In this document: positions 5,921-45,086 of the stretch, one piece after another
Layout: each line of letters starts with the position of its first letter
Numbering within the stretch: position 1 is the stretch's first letter
Assembly (NCBI GenBank): GCA_964453405.1
Contig: CAYVOF010000001.1
Coordinates: 1,531-65,530, forward strand
Direction: 5' to 3'
Length of the DNA: 64,000 bases
DNA from: an uncultured Candidatus Saccharibacteria bacterium
GTDB taxonomy: Bacteria; Patescibacteriota; Doudnabacteria; UBA920
Program-made: the position numbers and the translations under genes
The notes under the pieces: generated by a model
Told to the model about the DNA's origin: nothing
Database searches by the model: none
Seen by the model: only the letters and a program-made list of their open reading frames with translations

Positions 5921-6895
5921 TTAAATATTAGTAAGCGCTTTGTCAATCCACCGAATATCCTTATTCCGCTTCCACCATGTCATTTGGCGCTTGGCGTATT
6001 GGCGGCTAGAAGTAAGTATCCCTTGTTCCATTTCTGGTTGAGTAATTTTATTTTGAAGAAATAGCTCGCAGTATCTGTACTCTAAACCAAAAGCTTCTAG
6101 TTTTTTCCAGCTTAAGCCAAACCCATTTTGGGATATTGGTTTATGTAAGTTTGCAACTTCCTTTATCATACCTATTTTTAATCGGGATTTTAATCTTTTG
6201 GTAATATTCTGTTTTAAAATATCCATACTCGGATTTAAGCCCAGCCATAAAACTCGATAATTTTTAAAAGTTTTTTGAGTATCTAGCTTTGGAACTGGTT
6301 TACCCGTACTCATTACAATCTCTAACGCACGAATCAAGCGATGTGGATTATTTTTATCAATCTCCGCGCCGCGCGCGGGGTCAAGCTCCTGTAACTTAGC
6401 AAACATTTGCGCGGGTGTGAGTTTAGCTAACTGAGCGCGCAGTTTTTTATCTGGTTTAACTTGAGGAAAATTATTATCATATATAACTGCGTCAATCCAG
6501 TGTCCTGTACCACCGCAAATTATTGGCATCTTGCCGCGCTTAAGAATATCAGCAATCGCGGCTCGAGCGCCGCGCTGAAAACGAGCCGAAGAATATTGGA
6601 CGCTGGGACTGGCTTCGTCAATCAAATAGTGGGGGACGCCTTTGTAAACAAAAACTTCATTATTTTTTTTCGCGCCGCCGCGACTTTTCGCCGCGCCTTG
6701 TTTGGTCCAGCGTCCTTCAACCTTACCCGAACCAATATCCATGCCTCTGTAAATTTGACGACTATCAGCAGAGATAATTTCGCCGTTATATTTTTTTGCT
6801 AGTTTAACAGCTAATTCACTTTTACCAGAAGCGGTTGGGCCGACTACGCAAATTAGATCGTAACTTTTGATTAAATTATTCGTTAATGTGTTCAT
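5921..6895 (-). CDS. miaA: tRNA dimethylallyltransferase
   Basis: P-loop ICVVGPTASGKSELAV, ADSRQIYRGMDIGSGK and C-terminal YAKRQMTWWK motifs. It contains a basic insert of about 35 aa after the DIG motif. Confidence 0.85.
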   Translation of the reverse strand: MNTLTNNLIKSYDLICVVGPTASGKSELAVKLAKKYNGEIISADSRQIYRGMDIGSGKVEGRWTKQGAAKSRGGAKKNNEVFVYKGVPHYLIDEASPSVQYSSARFQRGARAAIADILKRGKMPIICGGTGHWIDAVIYDNNFPQVKPDKKLRAQLAKLTPAQMFAKLQELDPARGAEIDKNNPHRLIRALEIVMSTGKPVPKLDTQKTFKNYRVLWLGLNPSMDILKQNITKRLKSRLKIGMIKEVANLHKPISQNGFGLSWKKLEAFGLEYRYCELFLQNKITQPEMEQGILTSSRQYAKRQMTWWKRNKDIRWIDKALTNI

Positions 6896-9470: not shown

Positions 9471-10028
9471 ATGATTCAAGATATTATCAATCAACACAAA
9501 GAACAGTTCGAAAAATCGATCGAGCATTTTCATCATGAATTATCCAGCGTGCGTACTGGTCGCGCCAACCCGGCATTGCTTGCCACAGTTATGGTAGAAA
9601 GTTATGGAACCAAAGTGCCACTACAACAGGTTGCAAACATTACCGTTAGCGACGCCAAGACTCTGACTATTAGCCCATGGGACAAATCGCAAATTGGGGA
9701 AATCGAAAAAGGTATTCAAGTGGCTAATTTAGGATTTAATCCATCGAGCGATGGTCAAGTTGTACGAGTAAACTTACCAATGTTAACCGAAGATCGTCGT
9801 AAAGAAATGGTTAAGTTAGTTGGTCAGATGTCTGAGAATGCTCGCATTGCAATTCGTCAAGTCCGTGAAGAAATTATCAAAGCCAACAAAAAAGCTGAAA
9901 ACGACGGCGAGATTACCAAAGATGATGTCGCTGCCGCGCAAAAGAAAGTACAAGAAGTAGTTGATAAATATAATGATCAAATTAAAGATACTGCCGCAGA
10001 TAAAGAAAAAGAATTAATGACAGTGTAG
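9471..10028 (+). CDS. frr: Ribosome recycling factor
   Basis: Full-length RRF (185 aa) with LSSVRTGRANPALL and VNLPMLTEDRRKEMVK motifs. Confidence 0.9.
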   Translation: MIQDIINQHKEQFEKSIEHFHHELSSVRTGRANPALLATVMVESYGTKVPLQQVANITVSDAKTLTISPWDKSQIGEIEKGIQVANLGFNPSSDGQVVRVNLPMLTEDRRKEMVKLVGQMSENARIAIRQVREEIIKANKKAENDGEITKDDVAAAQKKVQEVVDKYNDQIKDTAADKEKELMTV

Positions 10029-12511: not shown

Positions 12512-12540
12512 AAAAAGGCCAGCAGTTTGCTGGCTTTTTT
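12512..12540. terminator. Bidirectional rho-independent terminator between proS and the minus-strand orphan gene
   Basis: GCCAGCA-gtt-TGCTGGC hairpin flanked by an A-run upstream and a T-run downstream. Confidence 0.6.
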
Positions 12541-12552
12541 AATATCATAATT

Positions 12553-12843
12553 TTATATTTCGTTGTCGATAACAGCTAACCTGACATAACTTCGTCTCTC
12601 AATCATTCGGTAGGGATACCCTTTGAATGAGCGAAAAATGTTGTTAAAAGTTTCCATCATTGCGTATCCGCTGGTGAACCTAGATTTAAGAATTGTCATT
12701 ACTTGATAATAAGACATTTTTTTCTCTTTGCTTTTCCAGATACCCATAATGACTTGACTCTCTTTTTCACCCCAAGGAAGTTTTTTAATCTTATGCCAAT
12801 CAGCCTTTGTCAGAACAAGAGAAATTATTTTTGATCTACCCAT
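12553..12843 (-). CDS. Small hypothetical protein (96 aa) with an HTH-like segment. It is an antisense-oriented orphan between proS and mreB.
   Basis: ORF with a basic N-terminus and a putative helix-turn-helix (KKMSYYQVMTILKSR). No family assignment possible. Confidence 0.3.
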   Translation of the reverse strand: MGRSKIISLVLTKADWHKIKKLPWGEKESQVIMGIWKSKEKKMSYYQVMTILKSRFTSGYAMMETFNNIFRSFKGYPYRMIERRSYVRLAVIDNEI

Positions 12844-12919
12844 ACATCCTCCCTAAAATTCTCTATAACTACTGTATTAGTCAAAGTACCACATTTATAA
12901 TGTATAGGCAAGAGTCCTG

Positions 12920-12948
12920 TTTACACCTCCCCAAAACCACGCTAATAT
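12920..12948 (+). promoter_or_regulatory. Sigma70-like promoter for mreB, placed for a leaderless transcript
   Basis: TTTACA at 12920-12925, 17-nt spacer, TAATAT at 12943-12948. The mreB ATG lies only 6 nt downstream at 12955. Confidence 0.45.
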
Positions 12949-12954
12949 ACATGT

Positions 12955-14007
12955 ATGTTTGACGCAATATTTAAACGATTTTCGCAAGATCTAGGGATAG
13001 ATCTAGGAACCGCGAATACCCTCGTCTATGTTAAAGGCAAGGGTATTGTTATCAATGAGCCTTCTGTGGTGGCGATAAACCAGAGAACTAAGCAGATTTT
13101 GGCTATTGGTACCGAAGCCCAGCGTATGGTGGGCCGTACTCCGACGCACATTGTCGCAACCCGCCCATTAGTAGATGGGGTAGTTTCGGATTTCGAAATT
13201 ACCGAAGCCATGCTTCGCTATTTTATCGACAAAGTTCACAATCAAACTTATTCGTTTTTGCGCCGTCCGCGAGTGGTCATTGGTATTCCGTCGGGTGTGA
13301 CAGAAGTTGAAAAGCGCGCGGTTCAAGACGCAGCGATAAACGCTGGCGCACGGGAAGCCTTCCTTATAGAAGAACCAATGGCGGCCAGTATCGGCGCGCG
13401 CCTTCCTGTTCAGGATGCAACTGGTTCAATGATAATTGATATCGGCGGTGGTACAACCGAAATCGCTGTGTTATCTCTTGGTGGCGTTGTTATCGCTCGC
13501 AGTCTGCGAGTTGCTGGTGATGTGATGAATGAACACATCGTGCAGTACGCGCGTGATAATTTTGGTATGCTTATCGGCTCACGCACAGCCGAAGATTTAA
13601 AAATCAAAATTGGTTCTTGCTATCCGCTTGCCGAACCTCTTACTAGCCAGATGCGTGGCCGTGATTTAGTTTCGGGTTTGCCTAAAGAAATCATGATCAG
13701 CGATAGTCATATTCGCGAAGCGTTAACTCCTTCAATTAAATCTATCGTTAACAACGTTAAAGCAGTTATCGAAGAAATTCCACCAGAAATTATTTCTGAC
13801 ATTATGCATCGAGGAATCATCCTTGCTGGTGGCGGTGCTTTATTGCGCGGTTTGGATCATCTACTTCATGACGAAACAAAAATGCCTGTCACAATAGCTG
13901 ATGATCCACTAACTTGTGTGGCTCGCGGCTGCGGTATTGTAGTTGAAGAATTGGAAGCTCTTCATGATGTATTACTTCCTACAGATTTTTCCCGTATTCC
14001 TCGTTAA
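12955..14007 (+). CDS. mreB: Rod shape-determining actin homologue MreB
   Basis: DLGIDLGTANTLVYVKGKGIVINEPSVVAI and GGGTTEIAVLSLGGVV actin-fold motifs. Length 350 aa. Confidence 0.9.
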   Translation: MFDAIFKRFSQDLGIDLGTANTLVYVKGKGIVINEPSVVAINQRTKQILAIGTEAQRMVGRTPTHIVATRPLVDGVVSDFEITEAMLRYFIDKVHNQTYSFLRRPRVVIGIPSGVTEVEKRAVQDAAINAGAREAFLIEEPMAASIGARLPVQDATGSMIIDIGGGTTEIAVLSLGGVVIARSLRVAGDVMNEHIVQYARDNFGMLIGSRTAEDLKIKIGSCYPLAEPLTSQMRGRDLVSGLPKEIMISDSHIREALTPSIKSIVNNVKAVIEEIPPEIISDIMHRGIILAGGGALLRGLDHLLHDETKMPVTIADDPLTCVARGCGIVVEELEALHDVLLPTDFSRIPR

Positions 14008-14120
14008 GGATTAATTTTTATATTTATATGATGGGAAGTGTCATGTAAGGAAACTATCTGAGCACAGCTTTCCGTTCACGAAGTGAACGAAGAAAGCGTA
14101 GCGAAGCTTGTTGACGAATG
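14003..14120 (+). ncRNA. Intergenic nested-palindrome structured element (candidate small RNA or attenuator) between mreB and mreC
   Basis: Outer inverted repeat TTAAGGAT...ATCCTTAA. Inner perfect 17-nt inverted repeat ATGATGGGAAGTGTCAT / ATGACACTTCCCATCAT enclosing about 72 nt. Central 7-bp hairpin CGTTCAC-gaa-GTGAACG. Confidence 0.4.
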
Positions 14121-14149
14121 ACACTTCCCATCATCCTTAAAAATAAAAA

Positions 14150-14947
14150 ATGAGATTTATATATACTAAAACATTCTTAATATTCGCCGGTGTTCTAGTT
14201 GCAGTGGTAATAGCACTTTTTCTTCAGGTCAACGGTTGGCTGGGCGGTATTCAGTATTTATTTGCCCAGGCACCAAAACCTGTGGCTAATATTGTGTCTA
14301 CAATTTTTAGGCCTGTGACAACTGTTATAAGCACACTAAGTTCATTACGAGGAGTGGTTCAAGAAAATAACCAATTAAAAACCGAATTAACAGATTTACG
14401 TCAAAAGCAAGTGGTTACAGAGCAGTTGAAAATTGAAAACGAATTGCTAAAAAATGAATTAGGCTTTAAATCCAAATCTCCTTATAACTTACAGCCGTGT
14501 ACAATTTTATCGCGCGACACTCAAGAGACTACTGATGCGCTAATTTTAAGTTGCGGTTTAAATGACGGAGTAGCGATTGGTCAGCCGGTGATTAGTCAAG
14601 GTTATTTAGTGGCAAAAGTTGTTTATGTGGGTAGTTTAAGCTCGACTGCCGTCTTAATTACCAATAGTCAGACTTCTGTGGATGCTAAGGCTTCTAAAAA
14701 TAATACCGAGGGGGTGCTTAAAGGTTCATTTGGTTCAGGATTAGTTTTTGACTTAGTTTCTCAAAGCGCTGATATTGCACCTGGAGATCTAGTTGTAACA
14801 GCTGGGATCGATCCACAAATTCCTAAAAATATTTTAATTGGTACAATAGGGCAGCAACTTTCTGGTCCAAACGATTTATTCAAAAAATTAACTTTAGTGT
14901 CACCGATTAAAGCTCATCAACTGGATTATGTATTTGTAGTAAAATAA
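14150..14947 (+). CDS. mreC: Rod shape-determining protein MreC
   Basis: N-terminal TM helix, coiled-coil (ENNQLKTELTDLRQKQVVTEQLKIENELLKNEL), then a beta-rich domain. It follows mreB. Confidence 0.75.
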   Translation: MRFIYTKTFLIFAGVLVAVVIALFLQVNGWLGGIQYLFAQAPKPVANIVSTIFRPVTTVISTLSSLRGVVQENNQLKTELTDLRQKQVVTEQLKIENELLKNELGFKSKSPYNLQPCTILSRDTQETTDALILSCGLNDGVAIGQPVISQGYLVAKVVYVGSLSSTAVLITNSQTSVDAKASKNNTEGVLKGSFGSGLVFDLVSQSADIAPGDLVVTAGIDPQIPKNILIGTIGQQLSGPNDLFKKLTLVSPIKAHQLDYVFVVK

Positions 14948-14951
14948 TTTT

Positions 14952-15497
14952 ATGAAGTGGATCGTCTATATAGTAATTATATTAGTAGTAGTGATCATTG
15001 ATCAGAGTTTGTTCAATGTTTTTCATTTAGGCCGCTATACACCTGATTTGCTTCTGTTATTTATCTTAGCCACTGTATGGTCCTTTAATAATTATGACTT
15101 TTTAATATTTGCGGTACTCGGTGGATTTTGGTTAGAAACCTTATCTGGCCTGCCAGTTGGCAGTTTGATTCTCGGCCTGATCATTACTGGTAGTTTGGCT
15201 TATGTATTAATTAATAGATGGCTATTTTCCGAAAAGCCATGGCAGTATTTTTTTGGAGCTATGGTGATTGGTACTATATTAGTTCATGTCTGGATGTGGC
15301 TTTACACGAGTGTGTTAGCTATGTTTGGCTGGAGCCATGTTACTATTAGTGGGCAAGGAATGCTCCGTGGATTAATCCCGGCCTTGTTAATTAATATCGT
15401 GTTTACTTATCCAATTTTAATTGTTATTGAATCTTTGGCCAAAATTACTCAGCGTTCCGGCGGTGGAGTTGGTGGTCAGTCAATTTATAAACTTTAA
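14952..15497 (+). CDS. mreD: Rod shape-determining protein MreD (polytopic membrane protein)
   Basis: 181-aa protein with five predicted TM segments, in the canonical position between mreC and PBP2. Confidence 0.55.
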   Translation: MKWIVYIVIILVVVIIDQSLFNVFHLGRYTPDLLLLFILATVWSFNNYDFLIFAVLGGFWLETLSGLPVGSLILGLIITGSLAYVLINRWLFSEKPWQYFFGAMVIGTILVHVWMWLYTSVLAMFGWSHVTISGQGMLRGLIPALLINIVFTYPILIVIESLAKITQRSGGGVGGQSIYKL

Positions 15498-15506
15498 GCT
15501 TTAAAT

Positions 15507-17486
15507 ATGCGTCAATCTCGTTTTAATCCATTTTCTACAACGCGATCATCAGATTCGGCCTCAGGCCAAGTTAAATCTGGGCTTGGTTTGGAGTGGGAAG
15601 AAGGTGTTAGTGGGCAAGCAACGCAGGTGCAGGCTTTTGATGAAGATTCTCGCGTAGAACGAAAAATAAAGTGGCCAAAGTGGTTATTATTAGCTGCTTG
15701 TATTATTTTAGGAGGTCAGCTATTTAACTTGCAGGTTATGCAAGGCAGTAATCTTCGCGCTTTAGCCGAAGGTAATCGTTTGCGTTTACAAACTATTTTA
15801 GCGCCGCGCGGCTTTATTCAGGATCGCAATGGCGAAACAATTGCTAAAAATACTGCCAGCTTTAACTTAGCTGTGACGCCGGTGGATTTACCGAAAGACA
15901 ACCGTAGTGAAACTTTTGAACTTATTTCCCAAAAATTTGGCGTACCGAGCAGCGAGATAGAAGCTAAATTAAAATCTGCTATTGGCGGCGTACTTGAGCC
16001 GATTATTATTAAGCGCAATATTACTCAGCAAGAAAGTATTCAGTTTGAAGTGTTAAAAAATAAATTGCCAGGGTTTTCTTTAGTTAACATTCCGGTTCGC
16101 GATTATGTATCGCCAGAAGTATTTTCACATTTACTTGGCTATACCGGAATAATTTCTGACGAGCAATATAAATCTCTAAAATCCGAAGATTACGGCCTCA
16201 ATGATTTTATCGGCAAGTCTGGTATTGAACAATCTTACGAAAAATATATCCGCGGTGTTAACGGTAATAAGCAGGTGGAAGTTGATAGCTCAGGTTTGCC
16301 TATCAAAGAGTTAGGTGAAGCTCAACCGCAACCGGGGAATATCGTTCAGTTAAATATTGACGCAGGTTTGCAAAAAAAGTTGTATGACGATTTTACTGCC
16401 AGCTCGGTGGGAAACAAAGGTGCGGCTGTGGCAATTAATCCAAAAACTGGTGAAGTATTGGCTTTGGTTTCGGTGCCAGGATTTAACAATAATTTATTCG
16501 CACCTGGAATTAAAACCGATGATTATAATGCGCTGGTTAATAATAAATATTTGCCGCTGTTTAATCGTGCGGTCAGCGGGACTTATCCGCCAGGTTCAAC
16601 TATTAAACCAGTTGGCGCAGCTGCGGTATTGCAAGAGAGAATTGTTACGCCTGATACAGTAGTTAATGATAATGGCGTGCTGGTGATTCCGAATCAGTTT
16701 GATCCAAGCGTGTCGTATAATTTTTATGGCTGGAAGCGCGACGGTTTGGGTGCTATGAATGTGCGTTCGGCAATTGCGCAAAGTAGCGATATTTATTTTT
16801 ATACTGTGGCTGGTGGTCACCCTAATTCGAAGATAAAAGGAATTGGTGCCGATAAGTTAGCTGAATATTACAGAAAATTTGGTATGGGTGCATTAACCGG
16901 AATTGATATTAATGGAGAAAAAACTGGCCGTGTAGCTGATCCAGCTTGGAAAGCAGCTTATTACAAAGATGATGCTTTGCTCGGTAAGTGGTATTTGGGA
17001 GACACTTATCATATCGCTATTGGGCAAGGAGATATTTTAGCAACTCCATTACAAGTGGCTGTATGGACCGCTGCAATTGCAAATAATGGCGTGTTAAATC
17101 GTCCGCATTTATTGAAACAAGTTTTGGATCAATCAGGTAAAACTATTTTTACGCCGCAAGTTCAAACGTTAATTAATACGGGGATAAGTTTAGAAAATCT
17201 TAAAGTTGTTCAAGAAGGTATGCGAGATAACGTAACTACTGCCAAGGGTAGTGGTCGCAGTTTGGCGAACTTGCCGATTACTGCAGCTGGTAAAACTGGG
17301 ACCTCTCAGTTTGACGGTTCTGATCCAAGTCGTACTCATGCTTGGTATACAGCTTATGCACCATACGAAGATCCTCAAATCGTGATCACAGTTTTGGTAG
17401 AAGCCGGTGGAGAAGGTCATGCTGCATCTGTACCGATTGTTAAAAATGCTTTGGACTGGTGGGCAAAGAACAGGATGGGAAAATGA
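15507..17486 (+). CDS. mrdA: Penicillin-binding protein 2 (elongasome class B transpeptidase)
   Basis: N-terminal TM helix, dimerisation domain, and transpeptidase motifs (GSTIKP as SxxK, and KTGT). It is encoded with mreBCD. Confidence 0.85.
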   Translation: MRQSRFNPFSTTRSSDSASGQVKSGLGLEWEEGVSGQATQVQAFDEDSRVERKIKWPKWLLLAACIILGGQLFNLQVMQGSNLRALAEGNRLRLQTILAPRGFIQDRNGETIAKNTASFNLAVTPVDLPKDNRSETFELISQKFGVPSSEIEAKLKSAIGGVLEPIIIKRNITQQESIQFEVLKNKLPGFSLVNIPVRDYVSPEVFSHLLGYTGIISDEQYKSLKSEDYGLNDFIGKSGIEQSYEKYIRGVNGNKQVEVDSSGLPIKELGEAQPQPGNIVQLNIDAGLQKKLYDDFTASSVGNKGAAVAINPKTGEVLALVSVPGFNNNLFAPGIKTDDYNALVNNKYLPLFNRAVSGTYPPGSTIKPVGAAAVLQERIVTPDTVVNDNGVLVIPNQFDPSVSYNFYGWKRDGLGAMNVRSAIAQSSDIYFYTVAGGHPNSKIKGIGADKLAEYYRKFGMGALTGIDINGEKTGRVADPAWKAAYYKDDALLGKWYLGDTYHIAIGQGDILATPLQVAVWTAAIANNGVLNRPHLLKQVLDQSGKTIFTPQVQTLINTGISLENLKVVQEGMRDNVTTAKGSGRSLANLPITAAGKTGTSQFDGSDPSRTHAWYTAYAPYEDPQIVITVLVEAGGEGHAASVPIVKNALDWWAKNRMGK

Positions 17487-42456: not shown

Positions 42457-43980
42457 ATGCCACCTACAGTTAACGACGACGATAAAAAATTCCCTAATGC
42501 CACCGAAGGTATCGCTGGCTTGTTAAACATTACTGCGCACGGTAACACAGGTCCACGGCCAGTTGACCAAGAGACATCTGAAGAGACATCTGAAGAATCA
42601 GCTGAGTCAACCTCTATGTTCGCAGAAAAATCAGTTGCACCACCAAGCAATTTGCCATTTGCAGATCAATCCGAGGATGAACATATGGACGAACTTGTAG
42701 GTGAACCAGTTGCTCAACCAACAAATGAGCCTAAGGATATAGCCAGCATGTTAAGTAGTCAACCAGTAAAGACACCAGAAGGAAAAATTGAAACGGTTGC
42801 CCAGGATCCTCCAGTTGGTACTAACTTAGAATCTACAAAAATAGTTAACCGCGGTTTTAATGTCATAAAAAAAATCCTACCTTACGTAGTAATTTTTGCC
42901 ATTGCTATAGGTTTGTATTTTTTCTATTTTAATGACTTTAGCTTTACGAGCTTATTTAATTCCCAGACTCTTAAACTAGAAAGTATAACCAGTTCTAATA
43001 CTAATAAAGAATATGAACAGCTTAAAAAAGATGCTGCGGCGGATTACGCTGTTTGGCTTAATCAATTTTTTACTGATGTTAATGACGATAGTATTTCGAG
43101 CATGGACGCCGATGTATCTGGTAATGGTTTAACTAACTTTGAAAAATATTTACTCAACTTAAATCCGAAAGTTTATTCTACTCGTGGCGGAACAGGGGAT
43201 GGTCAGTCCGTACTAGATGGTGTTAATCCTTGGACAGGCAAAACTTTTACAGATAAACAAAAACAACTAGTAGAAAAATATCTAAACCCAGAACTAATTA
43301 GCAACCGAATTACTGCAGCGGCAATTACTCGAGGCGTAACTAAATATGCACAATATGTAAATCCAGACTCCCCTTACTACATTGATCCAGCAACTCTTCA
43401 ACAGGCTGGTAGTAGCACTCAAGCCGTAGTTACTCCTACTCAGATTTCTACCACAACTCCGGCGAATATTCCAACCAACCAACAACCAAGTAATACTGTT
43501 AGTAATTTGCGACCAGACGAATCTATTGATCAAAGTAAACCGGCAATGTTAGACATTCCCGCGAATAAAATTTCTGTACCGTTAACATGGACTCAGGACG
43601 TCAAAGATTTTGAAGTAGATTTAAAGAAGGGTGTAGTGCATTATCCAGGCACGGCAATGCTAGGTGAAGTTGGTACGAGTTATATTTCTGGACATTCAAG
43701 TGGTTACGCATGGGACAAGAGCCCTTATAAACAAATTTTCGCTGGCTTAGGCGGCGTTAAAGATGGAACTTCATTTTCTATCACTGCAACTCAAAAGAAC
43801 GGTAAGACTGTGAAGTATAATTATATTGTTGATCATCGAGGTGAATTTGCCGCTAATGACCAGGCTCAATTCTTAAGCACCTCTGACTCTGTAGTAGCTT
43901 TATCGACTTGCTGGCCTGTTGGGACTACGGCGCGTCGATTAGTTCTTTTTGGTAAACTAACTCAAACTGAAAGAAGCTAA
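42457..43980 (+). CDS. Sortase-like transpeptidase with a long acidic/ST-rich N-terminal region and one TM helix
   Basis: The C-terminal about 200 aa carry a His (YISGHSSGY), the TLxTC-like active-site motif VALSTCWP, and a downstream Arg (TTARRLVLF). Confidence 0.5.
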   Translation: MPPTVNDDDKKFPNATEGIAGLLNITAHGNTGPRPVDQETSEETSEESAESTSMFAEKSVAPPSNLPFADQSEDEHMDELVGEPVAQPTNEPKDIASMLSSQPVKTPEGKIETVAQDPPVGTNLESTKIVNRGFNVIKKILPYVVIFAIAIGLYFFYFNDFSFTSLFNSQTLKLESITSSNTNKEYEQLKKDAAADYAVWLNQFFTDVNDDSISSMDADVSGNGLTNFEKYLLNLNPKVYSTRGGTGDGQSVLDGVNPWTGKTFTDKQKQLVEKYLNPELISNRITAAAITRGVTKYAQYVNPDSPYYIDPATLQQAGSSTQAVVTPTQISTTTPANIPTNQQPSNTVSNLRPDESIDQSKPAMLDIPANKISVPLTWTQDVKDFEVDLKKGVVHYPGTAMLGEVGTSYISGHSSGYAWDKSPYKQIFAGLGGVKDGTSFSITATQKNGKTVKYNYIVDHRGEFAANDQAQFLSTSDSVVALSTCWPVGTTARRLVLFGKLTQTERS

Positions 43981-43985
43981 AATTT

Positions 43986-44100
43986 AAAAAAAAGACAGTA
44001 TATTATTTTCTTTCGACTTACATGTCTACGTCGCCTTCACTGCTTCCGCAGTGGGCGACTGTGACCTGATAGTCTCTAGAAAAACAATATGCTGTCTTTT
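43986..44100 (+). ncRNA. Second nested-palindrome structured element (candidate small RNA or complex terminator)
   Basis: Outer 15-nt inverted repeat AAAAGACAGTATATT / AATATGCTGTCTTTT encloses about 80 nt. The enclosed sequence contains the hairpin GTCGCC-tt-CACTGC-ttcc-GCAGTG-g-GGCGAC. Confidence 0.4.
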
Positions 44101-44159
44101 TGATATTAAACTTCTTTTATTTATGCCAATTTTTCAATAACGGCGTTTTGGCTTTAGCC

Positions 44160-44188
44160 TTGACAAAATGGCTATTTTGTGCTAATAT
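44160..44188 (+). promoter_or_regulatory. Promoter (TTGACA-17-TGcTAATAT) driving a roughly 200-nt leader upstream of the secreted cassette
   Basis: Consensus -35 and extended -10. The next start codon is at 44400. Confidence 0.5.
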
Positions 44189-44399
44189 ATAACTTCGGGT
44201 CAATAGTATTGATTTAATGATAAATAGTAGTTATTATTGAGTGTTAGATAGGTTTCTGCTCGTTTCCCCTGGTATTTTACTACAGTCAGGCAGGAAATGA
44301 GCGAAAACATGTCTGGCACCGCGTCAAACAGTTGTAATACTAACGCTGTACGCGCGTTACAATAGACATAGATCTTTAAAAAATTCCTAGGGAGGGAAT

Positions 44400-45086
44400 A
44401 TGAAAAAAATTGCTATTATTGTGTTATTTGTTGTTGCTTTTTGTTTTGTTTCGCCGAGTTCATCGTATTCCCAGGGTAAAGATCGTTTGAAGATCGAAGT
44501 CCGGGGATTTGATAACAACGTTCAAACACAGCTAATGGTTTCCAAGTTCATGGCCGACAACGCCGACTGGGCAATCGTAGTTGATGCCAATCCAAAATGG
44601 ATCATGAGAGTTACTCAACAATCTGGATATGGTCAAACTTGGACACAGGTTGACCAAAAAGCTCAAACCAGGAACAACATGGTTCGTTCGGGAAACCAAA
44701 CGATTCGCAGCGTTACGAGAAATAGTCCATTTGATAGCTGGTGGGGACGAACGATCAAACAGACTATCCGTCAAGCTGGTCAAAGTCAATTGCAACGCTT
44801 CGCTAAACCGGAGCGGTATCAATACCGAAAGGAGCAGTCGAGTGTAACGGTCGAAGTAATCGATCCGATCACTCGTGAAGTTGCTTCTAAGGCAATCGGC
44901 ATCACAACAATTACCGTCAAAACTTTGCGTATGTCCGGCTATGAACCGCAAACGTATTTAGTTGAAGGTGATCTTTCGTCGGTTGGTATCGAGGCGGGTG
45001 CAAACCTGTTCGGAACCTACCGACAGCTCTTGCAGTTGTCAGCGTTTATGAACGCACAACGGCCGGAAAACCATATCATACAATAG
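44400..45086 (+). CDS. Secreted protein of unknown function (228 aa)
   Basis: Strong GGGAGGG RBS and a signal peptide (MKKIAIIVLFVVAFCFVSPSSS). Composition is GC-richer than the surrounding sequence. Resemblance to CsgG-like lipoproteins is only very weak and unverified. Confidence 0.45.
   Translation: MKKIAIIVLFVVAFCFVSPSSSYSQGKDRLKIEVRGFDNNVQTQLMVSKFMADNADWAIVVDANPKWIMRVTQQSGYGQTWTQVDQKAQTRNNMVRSGNQTIRSVTRNSPFDSWWGRTIKQTIRQAGQSQLQRFAKPERYQYRKEQSSVTVEVIDPITREVASKAIGITTITVKTLRMSGYEPQTYLVEGDLSSVGIEAGANLFGTYRQLLQLSAFMNAQRPENHIIQ

Follow-up and report, generated by a model that had tools for sequence, protein, structure and literature searches.

The locus described here raises the question of what a large nested palindrome is doing between the cell-shape genes mreB and mreC. 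It lies in a 64,000-nucleotide stretch of contig CAYVOF010000001.1 (assembly GCA_964453405.1, positions 1,531 to 65,530; hereafter the window) from an uncultured Candidatus Saccharibacteria bacterium assigned by GTDB to the Doudnabacteria, and its MreC homologues place it in the Candidate Phyla Radiation (CPR)/Patescibacteria, adjoining Candidatus Doudnabacteria. CPR genomes are approximately 1 Mb with minimal intergenic DNA, and 137 nt of structured sequence within an essential operon for the cell wall are therefore conspicuous. The element, which we call E1, is a member of a low-copy, clade-restricted family of hairpin modules (F1) of Candidatus Doudnabacteria-like CPR bacteria; it is dispensable and sporadic among close relatives, and its core can occur in both orientations at one and the same position. 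Among functional readings, we find it most plausible that E1 would serve, without being essential, as a hairpin for processing or stability in the mRNA of the operon.

E1 and the F1 family

E1 was read from the sequence as a 137 bp element in the mreB-mreC spacer on the forward strand, at 14004–14140; a first-pass annotation had placed it at 14003–14120, which cuts off the right arm. It is built around a perfect 17-bp inverted repeat with a left arm ATGATGGGAAGTGTCAT at 14028–14044 (repeat I3, 100% complementary) and a right arm ATGACACTTCCCATCAT at 14118–14134, both identified by an inverted-repeat scan. This is the longest perfect inverted repeat of the window, and among 100 sequences simulated with a first-order Markov model the longest arms had a mean of 8.9 nt and a maximum of 16, compared with 17 in E1. 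A second repeat frames the first, with an outer left arm TTAAGGAT (14004–14011) that pairs in the minimum-free-energy fold with an outer right arm ATCCTTAA (14133–14140), the latter having a 2-nt overlap with the 17-bp right arm. Between the two left arms is an AT-rich one-sided bulge, TAATTTTTATATTTAT (16 nt, 14012–14027), which is unpaired in the fold, and once it is taken out the E1 arms are 23 bp long. The mreB stop codon (TAA, 14005–14007) falls within the outer left arm, the mreC ATG is 9 nt past the end of the element, and the 3′ flank is A-rich (CCTTAAAAATAAAAAATG). The forward-strand RNA folds at −55.5 kcal/mol (z = −8.0), a value equalled by none of 200 dinucleotide shuffles, and the reverse strand folds at −49.7 kcal/mol (z = −8.4). 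The nested palindrome is thus real and beyond chance. The first-pass annotation had correctly recognized the 17-nt repeat, the small hairpin inside it and the framing repeat with its left-only AT-rich insertion, although it gave the insertion as 18 nt and the enclosed segment as about 72 nt, where we count 16 and 73. The open reading frames (ORFs) overlapping E1 are unannotated and only 23–27 aa long (MMGSVM* and 26–27-aa minus-strand ORFs), and a small-ORF reading was set aside because they are so short.

The enclosed 73 nt (14045–14117, sense on the forward strand) form the E1 core, as defined by the sequence, the fold and alignment to the related copies described below. Starting from its left side, the core contains ACTATC (14053–14058), one side of a tandem G.A internal loop (CU-GA-GC, 14058–14063, opposite GC-GA-AG, 14101–14106), CACAG (14063–14067), a helix in which GCTTTC (14067–14072) is paired to GAAAGC (14092–14097), and the apical 7-bp hairpin CGTTCAC-GAA-GTGAACG (14073–14089), which is followed by an AA bulge (14090–14091) and then by CGTAG (14097–14101). 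Neither the 17-mer arms nor the inner hairpin has a second copy in the window, even when up to three mismatches are allowed. The search for additional copies of the arms that the first-pass annotation had proposed as a test for a miniature transposable element with inverted repeats (MITE) therefore fails in the window, and it is through the core that the family was found.

The name F1 is given here to the E1-type hairpin modules, which are ~110 nt long and have an asymmetric core (ACUAUC..CACA-helix-apical hairpin-AA-helix-GUAG) closed by a long outer stem whose sequence is unlike in each copy. A second F1 copy in the window, E2, is at 43989–44101 with the core sense on the reverse strand, and corresponds to repeat I1 (21-nt arms, 90% complementarity). 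Its 71-nt core has the same order of motifs (ACTATC..CACAG..AA..CGTAG), and its alignment with E1 is confined to ACTATC, CACAG, the AA bulge and CGTAG, with all of the helices differing in sequence. Comparison with related Doudnabacteria loci or lineages (given L-numbers here) shows that the mreB-mreC spacers of L002/L006 and of L003 also hold F1, and there is a weaker member between frr and rseP in L029 (38.5 bits). Covariation is present among the members: in a four-member alignment 91% of the cells are paired, and 23 of the 32 pairs have changed on both sides, compared with 9.9 ± 2.1 pairs in shuffles (none of 500 reached 23) and 3–7 in slid alignments. Because the first covariance model (R1) included E1, we also used a leave-one-out model (R2) made from E2, L002 and L003 only. 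With filters off, R2 finds E1 as the second match in the window, in register, at 36.5 bits (E = 2.8e-6), with the best noise match at 14.8 bits; default filters missed E1. With filters off there are exactly two F1 copies in the window, which are divergent, and five F1 loci in ~776 kb of Doudnabacteria DNA.

Broader searches gave no further members. There are no Rfam matches in seven related loci, and a CAG-helix-GTAG descriptor together with a tandem-GA motif returned only the known members and coding-sequence noise in ~680 kb of related loci. The core pattern has 19 chance matches in GC-rich contigs of a viral collection, none of which fits the model, and four GC-rich matches without outer stems in a metagenome collection; an E1-specific pattern has no matches in the viral collection. 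No match to E1 was found by blastn in phage and plasmid collections, and a literature search by sequence strings returned primers only. TIGR-Tas arrays, which came up in the literature on palindromic repeats of Patescibacteria, are tandem arrays and unrelated to this solitary hairpin. F1 is of an already known kind, in that it is a bacterial intergenic palindromic repeat forming an mRNA hairpin, and what is new is the conserved asymmetric core with unrelated arms, the low copy number and the restriction to CPR bacteria; F1 has no counterpart in Rfam.

The distribution of F1 at the mreB-mreC junction is irregular. The closest relative, L082, has an MreC that is 90% identical and a spacer of only 23 nt with no element. 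The element is also missing from L004 (87%) and L001/L005 (86%), in which the spacer is 47 nt and GTAAGGAgtATCTG / GTAAtGA-CTATCT is kept. F1 is present in L002/L006 (79%; spacer 146 nt), where it is inverted, and on the same strand as E1 in L003 (77%; spacer 140 nt), which is represented by a complete genome (CP064996.1). Further empty junctions are in L083 (77%; 36 nt) and L032 (72%; 23 nt). In total, F1 is at the junction in three of the seven lineages with MreC identity of at least 77%, and is inverted in one of the three. In L001 and L004 the spacer sequence matches positions 14045–14060 of the E1 interior and possibly represents a deletion remnant; this suggests that F1 is ancestral in the clade and has been repeatedly lost. 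E1 is not a conserved regulator of mreBCD or of cell-shape genes, and the earlier proposal that it controls mreC-mreD-PBP2 (penicillin-binding protein 2) stoichiometry is not supported by the comparison with the closest relatives, which have element-free spacers of 23–47 nt, or with the relative in which the element is inverted.

Recurrent hairpins at gene junctions

F1 is not the only large hairpin found between mreB and mreC. Among 34 lineages the spacer is shorter than 60 nt in 17, and of the remaining 17 spacers 12 have folds with z < −3. These strongly folding hairpins represent at least four sequence families without evident mutual similarity: F1, F2 (L007, L009 and L015), F4 (L019 and L021), and others in L026, L027, L028 and L030. 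There are two further families, F3 (at other junctions) and F5. The mreB-mreC junction is therefore a recurrent site of large hairpins, with no single hairpin being conserved.

The F2 core is GUAAGCUAGCGCC..hairpin..GAGAGCGC and has no Rfam match. Copies are in L007 (9863–9965), L008 (6349–6474), L015 (9894–10000) and L009, which has three copies within 20 kb (6243–6344 and 9869–9967 on the forward strand, 13339–13441 on the reverse strand). The three L009 copies are in both orientations and have identical 11-nt arms (GCCACCCACTT/AAGTGGGTGGC), with one pair ~90% identical as judged by eye, which indicates that F2 has probably spread recently in L009 and that such modules can spread. F3 copies are in L078 (11520–11603), L081 (11522–11612) and L026 (10802–10909 and 4652–4853), with the motifs CACWAGUCCUCGG..CCUGCGGAU, also given as CACWAGUCCUCGG..hairpin..CCUGCGGAUWSGUUC. 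The sequence GRCU(G/A)GUGA is common to F3 and to the antisense strand of F1, and the two families may be distantly related. We also note a GTCATCCTGAGCGAGCGAAGCGAGTCGAAGGATC-type motif, present both in tandem and singly, on the reverse strands of L011 (2614–2669 and 6243–6359) and L013 (3101–3164), the signature of which (CUGAGC...GCGAAG) resembles the tandem-G.A part of E1 (CUGAGC at 14058–14063 and GCGAAG at 14101–14106).

The position of E2 provides a second informative comparison. E2 is directly 3′ of a sortase-domain gene (42457–43980), and its arms have an A-run at the start and T5 at the end. At the orthologous site there are plain intrinsic terminators in L077 (80% identical) and L079 (e.g. 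AAAAACTGGCAAAGTTATGCCAGTTTTTTTT), and in L078 and L081 there are long F3-type hairpins whose basal stems retain the terminator A-run and T-run. Module-bearing hairpins thus take the positions of ordinary transcript-end hairpins, and in E2 the F1-type module appears to form the body of a terminator-like hairpin. The difference between L078 and L079 is suggestive of a mobile core inserting into pre-existing terminator loops.

A separate feature is present close to E2. At 44241–44322 on the forward strand there is an ~85-nt hairpin leader (GUGUUAGAUAGGUUUCUGCUCGUUUCCCCUGG...CAGGCAGGAAAUGAGCGAAAACAUGUCUGGCAC) upstream of an ORF at 44400–45086, preceded by a promoter-like TTGACA-17-TAATAT site at 44160–44188. 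The leader is almost invariant in L077, L078, L079 and L081, where the flanks and the neighboring proteins are diverged (67–80% identity); its forward-strand fold includes several G-U pairs, and it has no Rfam match. It is a candidate cis-regulatory leader of a 228-aa protein that has no Pfam domain.

Gene context and possible roles of E1

E1 is located within a co-directional array of mreB (12955–14007, forward strand; Pfam MreB_Mbl, E = 7.3e-141), mreC (14150–14947, forward strand; Pfam MreC, E = 2.6e-27), an ORF in the mreD position that has no Pfam match (14952–15497) and a gene for a PBP2-type transpeptidase (pbp2, 15507–17486, identified by Pfam), in agreement with the location given by the first-pass annotation. 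An exact look-up of the window's MreC sequence returned no recorded protein. A consensus scan found no sigma-70-like promoter at E1, including the AT-rich bulge; there is no U-tract after E1, and no terminator-like site was found by scanning 13800–14300. The whole window has no Rfam 15 matches at the gathering threshold, and a permissive scan around E1 gave noise only (E ≥ 2.5, ≤19 bits), so that the Rfam comparison suggested earlier assigns E1 to no family. Neither Rfam at the gathering threshold nor ARAGORN finds any known RNA gene, whether for a tRNA, an rRNA or another RNA, in the 64 kb. We scanned 54 window ORFs with Pfam and none encodes a transposase, integrase, RAYT (Y1_Tnp) or other mobile-element family. 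Those that match Pfam are housekeeping or cell-envelope genes, and the remainder have no match; the families represented are gatCAB, miaA, frr, rseP, proS, mreBC-pbp2, folD, greA, serS and ddl, together with glycosyltransferases, sortase, S8 peptidase, an extracytoplasmic function (ECF) sigma factor and msrAB.

The gap between proS and mreB, upstream of this array, has features of its own. In the relatives L004 (8641–8714, forward strand) and L019 (8555–8663) it contains a tRNA-like 3′ end (GGTTCGACTCCCGT..CCACCA), which in L004 gives a sub-threshold transfer-messenger RNA (tmRNA) match (20.5 bits, compared with a gathering score of 47) and no ARAGORN call. The corresponding gap in the window (12512–12954) has no tmRNA-like match and no ARAGORN call, and contains a 96-aa minus-strand ORF (12553–12843) without a Pfam match.

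The role we favor for E1, at roughly an even chance, is a non-essential one in the mreBCD-pbp2 mRNA, where it would hold back exonucleases and/or be processed by an enzyme of the RNase III type and would in this way uncouple mreB from the downstream genes. With neither its own promoter nor a U-tract, E1 is presumably transcribed within the mreB-mreC-(mreD)-pbp2 mRNA. Its RNA would form a hairpin that has a double-stranded base of 17–23 bp and a folding energy of about −52 to −55 kcal/mol, and which would block 3′-to-5′ exonucleases and/or serve as the substrate of a double-strand-specific RNase of the RNase III type, such that the mreB segment of the mRNA would have a fate separate from that of the mreCD-pbp2 segment. 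The effect would be post-transcriptional, with transcription not being terminated, and the missing U-tract and terminator call fit a hairpin that is obliged to permit read-through into mreC. The structure is also larger than a terminator needs, as had been noted before. The recurrence of large hairpins at this junction (12 of the 34 lineages) counts in favor of such a role, as do the plain terminators and other long A/T-tract hairpins of relatives at the E2 site. The core has RNA-like features, including the tandem G.A in E1 and L029 and conserved single-A bulges, and the sense strand has the more stable fold in four of the five members (sense and antisense values are −51.9 and −47.3 for E1, −44.9 and −40.3 for L002, −44.0 and −35.4 for L003, and −36.2 and −22.1 for L029), the exception being E2 (−51.0 and −52.4).

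Several observations weigh against this role. The closest relative manages with a 23-nt spacer, and any function of E1 must therefore be non-essential. The sense core is co-directional with the flanking genes in three of the five members and antisense to them in E2 and L002, and recognition of an asymmetric core as mRNA is hard to reconcile with this variable orientation; with respect to replication, too, E1 and E2 point in opposite directions, as GC skew is positive across the entire window. Moreover, covariation in a DNA palindrome can come from hairpin-templated mutation without selection on RNA, and the co-transcription and processing of E1, like any influence on expression, are inferred from the sequence. 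Quasi-palindrome mutagenesis is a process in which hairpin-templated correction can yield perfect arms and apparent compensatory changes, and recombination between palindrome arms, if the same knowledge is applied to F1, would invert the core. The modules probably arose from palindromes spreading or turning over at the DNA level; hairpin-templated repair could preserve the complementarity of the arms, and inter-arm recombination could turn the core around.

There are several known systems with which E1 can be compared, and among them the Correia, ERIC and Legionella cases are precedents for the favored role. Correia elements (NEMIS), which are MITEs of Neisseria, have been proposed to be processed by RNase III, and ERIC elements have been linked to mRNA stability (PMC2229807). 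Correia elements and E1 are alike in being non-coding and intergenic, with a length of 100–155 bp, terminal inverted repeats of ~24 bp and long hairpins that are co-transcribed (presumably so for E1). However, Correia elements have the same terminal repeat in their copies, produce TA duplications and number in the hundreds of near-identical copies, whereas F1 members have only the internal asymmetric core in common, with unrelated arms and a low copy number. The ERIC/IRU and YPAL elements of enterobacteria and Yersinia are imperfect palindromes of ~127–168 bp found in either orientation between co-transcribed genes, where they affect the stability of the flanking mRNA segments, and the sites targeted by YPAL include or border on regions of dyad symmetry (PMC2229807). 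The F1 and F3 modules are YPAL-like in being placed where relatives have plain terminator hairpins; unlike E1, ERIC and YPAL belong to families that are conserved in sequence and multi-copy. Repetitive extragenic palindromes (REP) and the mosaic elements built from them (BIME) share with F1 a location at gene 3′ ends, and REP can protect upstream mRNA. The REP sequences of E. coli have a conserved GTAG beside the hairpin, which may be compared with the invariant GUAG immediately 3′ of the inner helix in the F1 core. REP and BIME are only 20–40 nt long, are highly repeated and have a cognate RAYT gene, whose transposase mobilizes them, in contrast to the low-copy F1 modules of ~110–137 nt. Lastly, a terminator has been annotated after mreB in the mreBCD locus of Legionella pneumophila (PMC4630621); it is in the same position as E1, although E1 has no U-tract and is several-fold larger than an intrinsic terminator stem-loop.

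The principal alternative, which we regard as possible but clearly less probable than a processing or stability role, is that E1 is a function-less or selfish palindrome, either a non-autonomous MITE or a REP/BIME-type element, which persists in permissive AT-rich spacers and affects the mRNA only incidentally. Such palindromes would be easily lost, since long palindromes are prone to deletion, and close relatives have both filled and empty sites (L082 is empty, and L001 and L004 have the possible remnants). The variable core orientation and the apparent recent spread of F2 over 20 kb in L009 are consistent with mobility, as are the outer ends of E1 (T-TA-AGGAT...ATCCT-TA-A), which read TTAA...TTAA and are compatible with a TA or TTAA target duplication. 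E1 also fits the properties of bacterial MITEs (PMC2229807) in being small (under 200 bp) and non-coding and in forming a long hairpin as RNA. However, inspection of the flanks by eye at E2, L002, L003 and L029 gives no consistent target-site duplication, the E1 17-mer is present only at E1 in the window, and shared terminal repeats and large numbers of near-identical copies were not found in either the 64-kb window or the ~776 kb of related DNA, where there are two divergent copies and five loci respectively. No transposase, integrase or RAYT is among the 54 ORFs scanned. The unpaired nucleotides of the core have been kept while all of the helices changed, which indicates a constraint beyond neutral decay, though selection for mobilization could do likewise. 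As what identifies F1 is the core, with no terminal repeats in common, the family falls outside the classical MITEs; the earlier suggestion of a mobile element holds as regards membership in a palindromic family, but not as regards repeated arms.

Two other explanations are considerably less probable. That E1 is a DNA-level site, with a hairpin, cruciform or duplex core that is bound or recombined, we consider quite improbable; candidates for the interacting factor would be a nucleoid protein, a site-specific recombinase or an enzyme specific for single-stranded DNA, by comparison with integron attC sites and single-strand origins. The direction of the core follows neither transcription nor replication, as such a site would allow, and conserved unpaired bases with covarying stems resemble structure-recognized sites; the greater stability of the sense strand in four of the five members would suit a single-stranded DNA form equally. 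Nonetheless, there is no recombinase or integrase nearby among the ORFs scanned and no attC-type R/L box (GTTRRRY) in the sequence, the absence from close relatives argues against an essential chromosomal role, and the location of copies at gene 3′ ends is a better fit to roles at the transcript level. Least probable of all is that E1 is the gene of a separate small RNA, or that it controls mreCD-pbp2 as a riboswitch or attenuator responding to a ligand or a protein. The strong fold (z = −8), the tandem G.A with conserved bulges and the position upstream of mreC could be accommodated, but E1 has no promoter or terminator in our scans, no alternative fold is evident, and the element ends 9 nt before the mreC start region. 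The free-standing small RNA put forward in the first-pass annotation is disfavored by these absences, by the lack of an Rfam match at the gathering threshold and by the varying orientation, and the small RNA and switch readings alike are largely refuted by the presence/absence pattern at the orthologous site, with the L002 copy being inverted.

A more novel reading is that F1, together with the unrelated-looking F2 to F5 of other Doudnabacteria, represents an undescribed class of protein-recognized structured RNA modules grafted onto the transcript-boundary hairpins of reduced CPR genomes, terminators and intercistronic stems alike, which seems unlikely, though somewhat less so than a DNA-level site. 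A lineage-specific RNase or RNA-binding protein would then cleave or bind at the conserved G/A-rich internal loops, and the variable stems would carry no sequence-specific information, with the modules turning over and flipping through inter-arm recombination. In Doudnabacteria, large hairpins are found repeatedly at a small number of junctions (after mreB, frr, pbp2 and the sortase gene), with a conserved core, variable stems and none represented in Rfam. If they are protein-recognized modules, they would constitute a modular form of post-transcriptional punctuation in genomes where intergenic space is almost nil. If the modules affect mRNA processing, they would provide a simple route to differential expression within the long co-directional gene arrays of these uncultured organisms. 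If, on the other hand, they are nothing more than selfish palindromes, they form new repeat families, useful in annotation, that would help to avoid spurious ORF calls and palindrome mis-assemblies, and which may be useful for strain typing.

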